The notes: generated by a model not told the origin, from the sequence alone. A stretch of 64,000 nucleotides of DNA from Alphaproteobacteria bacterium (GCA_045639065.1 JAZUCK010000016.1:7705-71704); one strand, 5' to 3'; shown: positions 4,391 to 12,040, numbered from the stretch's first letter. Numbers and translations: made by a program.

Positions 4391-4420
4391 TTGATTTATA
4401 AAATATTTTTTTGTAATAAT
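4391..4420 (+). promoter_or_regulatory. sigma70-like promoter for tRNA-Trp (-35 TTGATT, 17-nt spacer, -10 TAATAA)
   Basis: The hexamers fit consensus with 17-bp spacing, about 14 nt upstream of the tRNA 5' end. Confidence 0.4.
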
Positions 4421-4433
4421 TAGTTCGCACGAT

Positions 4434-4509
4434 AGGGGTATAGCTCAGTTGGTAGAGCACCGGTCTCCAAAACCGGGTGTCGTGAGTTCGAATCTTACTG
4501 CCCCTGCCA
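4434..4509 (+). tRNA. trnW: tRNA-Trp (anticodon CCA)
   Basis: The sequence is nearly identical in architecture to E. coli tRNA-Trp. It has an AGGGGTA acceptor stem, a CTCCAAA anticodon loop, a GTTCGAATC T-arm and a 3' CCA. Confidence 0.9.
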
Positions 4510-4542
4510 AAAAAAAGCCACCTTTTAAGGTGGTTTTTTTAT
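4510..4542 (+). terminator. Rho-independent terminator (gccacctt ttaa ggtggc + T8)
   Basis: A perfect hairpin followed by a T-run sits directly after tRNA-Trp. Confidence 0.8.
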
Positions 4543-4728
4543 TGGCAATAGGGGATGTTAGGTTCGAACTCACGAAGAAAGTGAGTTTGACAAGGAAGAC
4601 AAGGTGTGCGGAAGCCCACCGGTCAACGAAGTTGATGTCTGACGAAGCAACTCGAGCAAAAGCGAAGAGTAATCTTACTGCCCCTGCCAAAAAAAAGCCA
4701 CCTTTTAAGGTGGTTTTTTTTGGTTTGA
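4541..4728. repeat. tRNA-Trp 3'-end scar: inverted degenerate copy of tRNA 3' end (4541-4577, minus) plus direct copy of last 19 nt of tRNA and the whole terminator (4671-4728)
   Basis: The segment aatcttactgcccctgccaaaaaaaagccaccttttaaggtggttttttt occurs twice, at 4491-4540 and 4671-4728. The reverse complement of 4546-4577 matches cgtgagttcgaa...cccct..gccaa of the tRNA 3' end. Confidence 0.7.
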
Positions 4729-10422: not shown

Positions 10423-10512
10423 TTAATATATTTACATCTTTAATAATATCATGTTTTTTTAGTCTACGCAAGGGGGAATAAATCGGTGATATTTGAAAGC
10501 CTTTTAATTGCC

Positions 10513-10748
10513 AAGTTATTGAAAAATATAGAAAGCTAGTTCGAAGATGGTGGAAAATAGGTGGCTGGATTGGGTACTCCCGCTCATAATCTTCGCGGGT
10601 CCTCCTCGCGTCGTAGGGCTCGCACGTCGTTTTACTTGTGCTTGCCAACTATCCGCTCCGAACCAAGTTGCTTCGCCTCAAAACCACACTCAATCCAACA
10701 AAAAAATCCTCCATAAAGGAGGACTTTTTTGTTGGCTGGAGACGACTT
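10513..10748 (+). repeat. about 230-bp GC-rich structured direct repeat, copy 1, ending in intrinsic terminator (aaaaaaatcctccataaaggaggactttttt)
   Basis: It is about 93% identical to 11746-11972. Long-range complementarity (tggattggg...ctcaatcca) plus internal hairpins suggest a folded RNA. Confidence 0.6.
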
Positions 10749-11745: not shown

Positions 11746-11972
11746 AAGTTATTGAAAAATATAGAAGCAAGTTCGAAGATGTTGTAAAATAGGTGGCTGG
11801 ATTGGGTACTCCCGCTCATAATCTTCGCGGGTCCTCCTCGCGGCGTAGGGCTCGCACGTCGTTTTACTTGTGCTCACCAACTATCCGCTCCGAACCAAGT
11901 TGATTCGCCTTAAAACCACTCTCAATCCAACAAAAAAATCCTCCATGAAAGGAGGATTTTTTTGCTGGCTGG
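11746..11972 (+). repeat. about 230-bp GC-rich structured direct repeat, copy 2, overlapping the 3' end of tRNA-Gln
   Basis: See copy 1. Its terminator hairpin (11925-11962) abuts the minus-strand tRNA-Gln. Confidence 0.6.
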
Positions 11973-12040
11973 GGTGGCTGGATTCGAACCAACGAATGAC
12001 GATACCAAAAACCGTTGCCTTACCACTTGGCGACACCCCA
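11966..12040 (-). tRNA. trnQ: tRNA-Gln (anticodon TTG)
   Basis: The reverse complement is TGGGGTGTCGCCAAGTGGTAAGGCAACGGTTTTTGGTATCGTCATTCGTTGGTTCGAATCCAGCCACCCCAGCCA. This nearly matches the E. coli tRNA-Gln(UUG) architecture. Confidence 0.9.

Follow-up and report, generated by a model that had tools for sequence, protein, structure and literature searches.

The repeated 3′ end of an alphaproteobacterial tRNA-Trp gene encloses a conserved, structured module found behind many tRNA genes

tRNA genes are classic landing sites of mobile DNA, and a short repeat of a tRNA 3′ end is usually annotated as an integration scar. In the window analysed here, a stretch of 64,000 nucleotides from an alphaproteobacterium, a tRNA-Trp gene is followed by a second copy of its own 3′ end and terminator, which a first-pass annotation took for the attL/attR footprint of an integrase. 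What lies between the two copies, and does it mark a past integration event? Here, we find that the "scar" is a conserved, covarying module, one of a family that trails tRNA genes of many specificities.

The tRNA-Trp repeat and its surroundings

A repeat search gives an exact direct repeat of 50 nt (4491–4540 and 4671–4720, 100% identity) at a spacing of 180 nt. It comprises tRNA nucleotides 58–76 (AATCTTACTGCCCCTGCCA) and, behind them, the terminator with its A-tract, hairpin and T-tract. The recurrence claimed in the first-pass annotation is thus exact, and its length of about 57 bp slightly too long. The inverted copy of the tRNA 3′ end that had been placed between the repeats is also present, as 26 nt (4550–4575 versus 4480–4505) that are 85% complementary; if a 2-nt indel is allowed, the match runs on through TGGCA into the terminator tract. 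Within the 64 kb window there are just two occurrences of the 12-mer CTGCCCCTGCCA, against a chance expectation of 0.04, and no third copy of the tRNA-Trp 3′ end is found. The arrangement is present in independent assemblies, and is therefore neither chance nor an assembly artefact.

The terminator scan scores both hairpins on the minus strand only; judged from the flanking A- and T-tracts, both can be read as stopping plus-strand transcription as well. Only one promoter-like site, 5′ of the tRNA (Table 1), is placed to drive tRNA-Trp and any read-through into the downstream unit. The promoter scan found no such site between terminator 1 and the unit or inside the unit. Lacking its own promoter, the module probably relies for transcription on read-through from that of the tRNA.

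Upstream of tRNA-Trp lie an ABC-F gene, exbB, exbD and a 310-aa ORF, and downstream follow a sulfatase-family gene and GNAT/NUDIX, TSCPD, LMW-PTP and GNAT genes. The G+C content of the window is ~36%. A heterogeneous gene block had been noted to begin here, from 4.8 kb onward. DNA similarity and synteny with every relative stop at tRNA-Trp, and nothing shows that the element delivered these genes. The secE-nusG pair, which would mark the end of an island, is absent from the entire 64 kb window, and the nearest downstream ORFs (up to ~11.6 kb) have no recombinase Pfam match. A cognate integrase was sought by tblastn of the relatives' island integrases and a serine recombinase against the window, which gave no homologue and nothing better than E = 0.03; beyond ~11.6 kb, the integrase check is by tblastn alone. 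Exact-protein lookup of a neighbouring ORF returned no record. Between this tRNA and a tRNA-Gln(TTG) gene with a similar trailer, the segment 9175–11620 holds ORFs of 415, 88 and 83 aa on the minus strand and 261 aa on the plus strand, all four without Pfam matches.

A family of modules behind tRNA genes

In gut and rumen Alphaproteobacteria, modules of the same kind, non-coding and ~150–190 nt long, stand just 3′ of many tRNA genes. A 21-nt pattern taken from the junction of two module parts, R1 and the core, retrieved 110 metagenome stretches, and a covariance model (R1, comprising helices H0, P0, P1 and P2) was built on 42 units. Together, pattern scan and model yield more than 120 units on ~100 contigs, all sequences being MAGs and metagenome contigs. 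The units lie 64–88 nt downstream of tRNAs, on the same strand, and the tRNAs that bear them are of at least 11 specificities: Trp, Glu, Ala, Ser (three anticodons), Arg, Thr, Val, His, Gly, Met and Gln. The same layout is seen behind tRNA-Ala, tRNA-Met and tRNA-Pro in the fetched loci. With 8 nt of R1 and ~13 nt of the core fixed in the pattern, sampling is biased towards tRNAs with the T-arm GAGTTYGA. Pattern matches from soil and marine sources and both from IMG/VR were rejected as chance, having no covariance-model match. Full-text searching, of incomplete coverage, found no description of such modules in the literature, and the family is apparently both widespread and undescribed.

Three matches fall in unannotated "UNVERIFIED Bacteriophage sp." faecal scaffolds. 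The two examined, GenBank records L193 (MT837473, 2853–3072) and L194 (MT836861, 1431–1700) from human faeces, hold ordinary tRNA-Met or tRNA-Gln plus unit loci and may be bacterial fragments within virome data. No plasmid matches for the module were found.

Each unit runs in the order terminator, arm L, purine loop of 3–8 nt, R1, core of ~85 nt, and DR. The arms follow whichever tRNA is upstream; the core is common to the whole family. R1 corresponds to tRNA nucleotides 49–58; behind a tRNA-Gly with the unusual T-loop TCCGA, even this is copied. DR typically comprises the final 19 nt of the tRNA and no more, free of mismatches in ~24 of 54 units. Since R1 and DR flank the core, a unit holds a copy of the T-arm and of the 3′ strand of the acceptor, interrupted in the T-loop by the core. 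The interruption always falls at T-loop position 58/59: the core stands 3′ of TTCGA or TTYGA, and the remaining T-arm comes after it. Arm L matches the complement of tRNA nucleotides 47–56 with an identity of 0.71–1.00. At nucleotide 57 the match is only 0.29, in most cases, by reading the sequences, a G·U pair or a G·A mismatch, and beyond nucleotide 65 the arm decays to random, the Trp lineage excepted. DR remains identical to the tRNA while this 5′ part of L decays. Among 99 tRNA loci, none has a "core-less" intermediate (L plus an unbroken T-arm copy). Among the sequences compared, we saw no excised form of the module and found no enzyme able to move it.

Four helices, H0, P0, P1 and P2, are backed by RNAalifold and by explicit pair counts. 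H0 pairs the 3′ part of L with R1, and in the family alignment it covaries with the T-stem identity of the adjoining tRNA. The core forms a three-way junction, in which P0 (3 bp in the family) encloses P1 (4 bp, a 2x2 purine internal loop, a C-G pair and a tetraloop) and P2 (6 bp), with a further region, P3. Over 24 pairs, 93.9% of cells are paired, versus 82.4% in shuffles, with none of 500 shuffles as high; double-change cells number 108, versus 34 in shuffles, and slid controls reach 43% at most. P1 is closed by C-GNRA-G in 28 of the 42 units. The pair at the base of P2 is G·U in 38 of 42, corresponding to a C·A mismatch on the opposite strand, and G·U pairs are frequent in H0 as well. As G·U pairs are mismatches on the opposite strand, the selected fold is that of the tRNA-sense strand. 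Covariation, GNRA loops and G·U pairs make the fold look like RNA, a folded plus-strand ssDNA being the alternative. In the window and in canonical units, Rfam 15, which includes tRNA, tmRNA, YrlA, hammerhead and riboswitch models, matches only the tRNAs; the best non-tRNA scores stay under 29 bits and come from the terminator. ARAGORN calls no tmRNA. An apparent hammerhead-like core, "CUGAUGAG", was rejected, as it lies in a covarying strand of P2.

The window carries a member of this family (Table 1). The covariance model matches 4560–4656 (68.3 bits, E 2.5e-15), with R1 and DR in their expected places and tRNA-Trp no more than ~90 nt upstream on the same strand. The minimum free energy fold of the window copy reproduces H0, P0, P1 with its GGAA loop, and P2; here P0 is AGAC/GUCU, compensated relative to the GCG/CGC of the family. 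The fold also gives a closing helix between L and DR, which brings the 5′ and 3′ ends together.

Table 1. Coordinates of the features discussed, in window numbering
Feature	Position	Strand	Basis or remark
Promoter-like site: TTGATT, 18-nt spacer, TG-AATAAT	4391..4420	+	5′ of tRNA-Trp; promoter scan
tRNA-Trp (anticodon CCA)	4434..4509	+	intact, CCA encoded; called by both ARAGORN and Rfam (68 bits)
Direct-repeat copy 1: tRNA nt 58–76 (T-loop A58 to CCA)	4491..4509	+	repeat search; family-typical 19 nt
Terminator 1: A-tract, hairpin ~4517–4534, T-tract	4510..4540	+	inverted repeats, terminator scan
Arm L: inverted post-CCA tract and tRNA nt 76 back to 47	4541..4575	+	inverted repeat
Hairpin H0: 4564–4573 with 4581–4590, purine loop GAAGAAA 4574–4580	4564..4590	+	inverted repeat, fold
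R1: direct copy of tRNA nt 49–58 (GTGAGTTTGA vs GTGAGTTCGA)	4581..4590	+	direct repeat
Conserved core	4591..4670	+	covariance-model match, single-sequence fold, covariation
P0	4597–4600 with 4637–4640	+	core helix
P1, closed by GGAA loop	4603–4609 with 4614–4620	+	core helix
P2, G·U pair at base	4622–4627 with 4631–4636	+	core helix
Variable P3 region	4650–4670	+	3′ part of core
Direct-repeat copy 2 (DR): tRNA nt 58–76 including CCA	4671..4689	+	repeat search
Terminator 2, identical to terminator 1	4690..4720	+	repeat search, terminator scan
Module-like layout behind tRNA-Gln(TTG) (tRNA 12040..11966)	11792..11965	-	architecture

A second trailer in the window, behind tRNA-Gln(TTG), consists of a terminator (11965..11931), then the degenerate remnant of an inverted T-arm, which includes a hairpin, then a structured insert and, at 11803..11792, a 12-nt direct repeat (AATCCAGCCACC) of tRNA nucleotides 58–69. 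The covariance model does not detect it, so that only the architecture is shared; it is a probable degenerate relative of the module. A genuine family unit stands behind tRNA-Gln(CTG) in L194.

Arrays, occupancy and neighbouring islands

Units can be arrayed as (DR-terminator-L-R1-core)n-DR, and such arrays often finish with partial units. At one tRNA-Glu locus with identical flanks on both sides, 1, 2 or 3 identical units are present according to the metagenome, with a period of 189 nt; the terminator after the final DR differs there from the unit's own. In L001 the array comprises 2.6 tandem copies and has a period of 169 nt. In the window, terminator 2 is read as the start of a second, truncated unit, and partial units also end arrays in relatives. 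The feature in the window is one complete unit plus the start of another, and the 180-nt repeat is the period of the array. The duplicated terminator, which had been listed as part of an integration scar, belongs to this period. Truncated remnants also occur in L008, L053 and L055. Arms and cores differ in how well they are conserved between orthologous Trp units: arm versus core identity is 0.90 versus 0.51 for the window and L001, 0.75 versus 0.81 for L001 and L016, and 0.94 versus 0.60 for L015 and L018. Cores of orthologous Trp units are 47–66% identical, with the structure maintained. L168 contains mosaic units within one array, and an Arg and a Gly unit on one contig have identical P1. 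This discordance of arm and core, together with the mosaics and the common P1, suggests from sequence comparison that cores may be exchanged between units. In practical terms, the arrays break metagenome assemblies at tRNA genes and are open to mis-annotation as att sites of genomic islands.

Our preferred reading, to which we give about an even chance, is that tRNA-Trp is followed by a complete and a truncated "split-T-arm tRNA-trailer module", a dynamic, non-autonomous and largely selfish RNA-structured repeat element. Its strongest rival is a module of use to the host: a family of non-coding RNAs co-transcribed with tRNAs and acting in processing, quality control or regulation by means of a tRNA-identical 3′ tail and an arm complementary to the T-arm. 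Such RNAs would not be mobile, and their tandem copies would be ordinary duplications. Much of the evidence suits this idea, including the strong covariation of the helices, the GNRA loop of P1, the conserved G·U pair of P2, the fixed orientation and distance from the tRNA, the joining of 5′ and 3′ ends in the window fold, and the fidelity of DR beside a decaying L. The unit is also kept, with compensatory changes, at the orthologous Trp locus in seven species and as a remnant in L008, a pattern that suits a host-useful RNA as well as a selfish one. We nonetheless think the host RNA unlikely. Occupancy is patchy: ~7 of the 19 Trp loci have a unit, as do 3 of the 12 Met loci. Truncated remnants are common, some losses are clean, and within one population the copy number ranges from 1 to 3. 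We found no conserved partner gene beside the units and, as noted, no promoter. A homologous core at unrelated tRNAs would, in any case, need some spread.

The history of the tRNA-Trp locus can be followed in 80 loci retrieved with an ExbB query from MAGs of uncultured gut and rumen Alphaproteobacteria (CAG:495, Candidatus Scatocola and similar). The unoccupied tRNA-Trp site for which the first-pass annotation called is found in L005, L007 and L012, where secE-nusG stands directly behind the tRNA and the unit is absent. Modules are present at seven Trp loci (the window, L001, L011, L015, L016, L018 and L023). In L008, a truncated module lies directly 5′ of secE, which implies that the ancestral order was tRNA-Trp, module, secE.

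tRNA-Trp is also a proven integration hotspot. Integrase-like ORFs adjoin it in L003, L004, L008, L009, L010 and L029; in the first four the ORF comes directly after the tRNA, complete at 590 aa in L003 and truncated in L008. The ~3-kb island in L009 is bounded at its far end by a 17-nt repeat of the 3′ end of tRNA-Trp (TCTTACTGCCCCTGCCA); this repeat covers the same span of the tRNA, T-loop to CCA, as the direct repeat in the window. Relative to the unit, islands are distal in L011, L015 and L018; in L101, L124, L136 and L178 they separate it from the tRNA.

Several other observations concern these loci. One family of integrase-like ORFs (starting MNGHNRL or MNGHTRL) stands by tRNA-Trp in L003, L004, L008, L009, L011 and L015, and by tRNA-Met in L066. 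Its members are complete (588–590 aa) in L003 and L066, truncated to 14 aa in L008 and 52 aa in L011, and preceded by two GTGTAACAC or GTGTATCAC repeats. In L010 (3517–3557) and L029 (10636–10676), tRNA-Trp ends at nucleotide 41, in the anticodon loop, and unrelated DNA follows; a 375-aa integrase-like ORF lies alongside, and ARAGORN no longer calls the tRNA. In L101 (7612–11250), a 3.6-kb island with DUF2924 and a large serine recombinase sits between tRNA-Glu and its trailer unit, with only ATCACCA repeated at the junction. In L002 (10190–10321), the 3′ half of tRNA-Trp is swapped for another T-arm and an acceptor in which CCA is not encoded, shortly before the end of the contig; in L026 (10184–10243), the contig breaks off inside tRNA-Trp. 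Assemblies thus tend to break at this locus. In L016 (~10430–10700), past the DR and terminator of the unit, an unrelated non-coding segment of ~230 nt ends with TGCTGCCCCTGCCA and the same terminator, and may be another small att-flanked element type. L015 (5811–5863) has a 26-nt tandem duplication (ATCTTACTGCCCCTGCCAATAAAAAG, 2 copies) at the tRNA end, before the unit terminator.

This setting bears on the original interpretation, in which the repeats are the attL/attR footprint of a tyrosine integrase. The 130-nt interior would then be an island remnant or else an att-flanked mini-element of CIME type, mobilised in trans by the integrases of islands. The span of the repeat, like that of the L009 att repeat, the empty sites and the hotspot all stand in its favour. 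It also accounts for the layout (DR-X)n-DR, with the element's own terminator beside the tRNA, and for units in tandem with integrase islands (L011, L015, L018); accretion and CIMEs at tRNA genes are, besides, well known (PMC5704250). What does not hold is the view of the interior as degraded island leftovers: it is an intact family member (68 bits), a conserved structured module common to many tRNAs, covarying and RNA-like as attP arms need not be. Nothing in the unit resembles the island ends in L008, L009 and L101, few island types being compared, and the integrases of the relatives have no homologue in the window. One core with arms for more than 10 tRNAs is beyond the specificity of a single integrase, and a double-stranded circle of 170–190 bp is a poor recombination substrate. 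The inverted copy had been taken to suggest more than one recombination event; it is instead a constant part of the family, the 5′ strand of a conserved hairpin, and no mark of a second event. We regard an integrase footprint or CIME-like mini-element as distinctly improbable.

Less probable still is a functionless by-product of replication error, in which snap-back at the palindromic terminator yields a direct-inverted-direct triplication, or tandem inversion duplication. The tRNA 3′ end, terminator 1 and arm L do form one long palindrome centred on the terminator loop, the junction of L, loop and R1 is a second, short palindrome, and L was originally full length and is now decaying. Snap-back nevertheless leaves unexplained a homologous, covarying core of ~85 nt, placed always at nucleotides 58/59 in many tRNAs, and the conservation of hairpin and core across species. 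It could describe the origin of the founding unit. Finally, the idea that the second copy is a decayed tandem tRNA duplicate, a tRNA pseudogene, draws on a weak 15-nt similarity (4610–4624 versus 4451–4465) and is effectively refuted by the covariation of the interior, which is a distinct conserved structure, by the failure of ARAGORN and Rfam to find a second tRNA, and by the lack of tRNA nucleotides 1–46 in any unit.

Possible mechanism and comparison with known systems

If the module is a largely selfish repeat element, as we favour, it would depend on the fold of the tRNA-sense strand to persist or spread. Its transcript would be an RNA of ~140 nt that is clamped through pairing of L with DR and has a 3′ tail that is the tRNA's own, and arrays would grow and shrink through recombination between DR-plus-terminator repeats. 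More tentatively, and with somewhat less confidence than in that reading, we propose novelty of one of two kinds. The modules may be RNA-structured elements of a new class, specific to tRNA genes, that install themselves at T-loop position 58/59 via sense and antisense T-arm copies while rebuilding the tRNA 3′ end; this would be RNA-guided or RNA-templated, would use folded RNA or plus-strand DNA, and would have no close known relative. Alternatively, they may form a new family of tRNA-linked regulatory RNAs with tRNA-specific arms. If the module acts as RNA, it is a widespread motif new to Rfam; if it is mobile, the matching of arm to tRNA could reveal a new targeting mechanism.

Like the att duplications that tyrosine integrases of islands and prophages make at the T-loop end, the module is flanked by a T-loop-to-CCA repeat, has empty sites, and shares its locus with real islands. 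In both cases the tRNA stays intact because the inserted DNA brings a new 3′ end and terminator. Of the parts of an integrase att pair, the flanking direct repeat and the empty site are seen here, and the integrase and foreign variable cargo are not. The module differs in having an insert of ~130–170 nt with a conserved, covarying fold in place of variable cargo, in adding an inverted T-arm copy and a second, partial direct copy (nucleotides 49–58), and in having the same core at more than 10 tRNAs.

CIMEs are att-flanked, lack an integrase and accrete with ICEs and IMEs (reviewed in PMC5704250). The module is like them in its att-like flanks, its lack of a recombinase and its tandem arrangement with autonomous islands. 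CIMEs, however, are kilobase-sized deletion derivatives of a specific ICE or IME, whereas the module has no detectable parent ICE, IME or island, is RNA-structured, and is adapted to each tRNA.

Tandem inversion duplications and inverted triplications arise at palindromes (PMC4689423), and show the same direct-inverted-direct order as the sequence around the palindromic terminator. They are sporadic, in contrast to a module family with a common structured core. The RNA repeats of type III toxin-antitoxin systems are also a poor match: they precede a toxin gene, whereas the genes that follow the module differ at every locus, its period is 169–190 nt, and each unit carries a terminator.

tmRNA and YrlA, the bacterial Y RNA, likewise contain T-arm and acceptor sequence and a CCA end, and the 5′ end of the Trp unit (GGGGAUGUUAGGUUCGAAC) resembles that of tmRNA. 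The module differs from both in having no Rfam match, in the breaking of its T-arm copy by the core, and in acceptor pairing that is conserved in the Trp lineage only.

The TnpB reRNA of IS200/IS605 elements, the IscB omega RNA and the IS110 bridge RNA are guide-bearing RNAs of transposons. The module differs from these in that the intact tRNA beside it would itself be a target, and in a scaffold unlike their Rfam models. With partner genes sought beside units only, no tnpA, tnpB, iscB or IS110 gene was seen beside any of them. A miniature IS200/IS605 element (PATE) or a TnpB guide RNA would be expected to lie 3′ of a fixed 4–5-nt target that is not duplicated, to have subterminal hairpins and to have a tnpA or tnpB partner in the genome; the module has hairpins, its core follows TTCGA or TTYGA, and no site has the arms alone. 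The guide-bearing RNAs nonetheless offer an analogy, and we use them only as such: they, too, join a scaffold of ~100–150 nt to target-matching segments, and the insert, with the conserved pentanucleotide TTCGA directly on its 5′ side and ~19 nt identical to the target on its 3′ side, would resemble the order TAM, element, guide.
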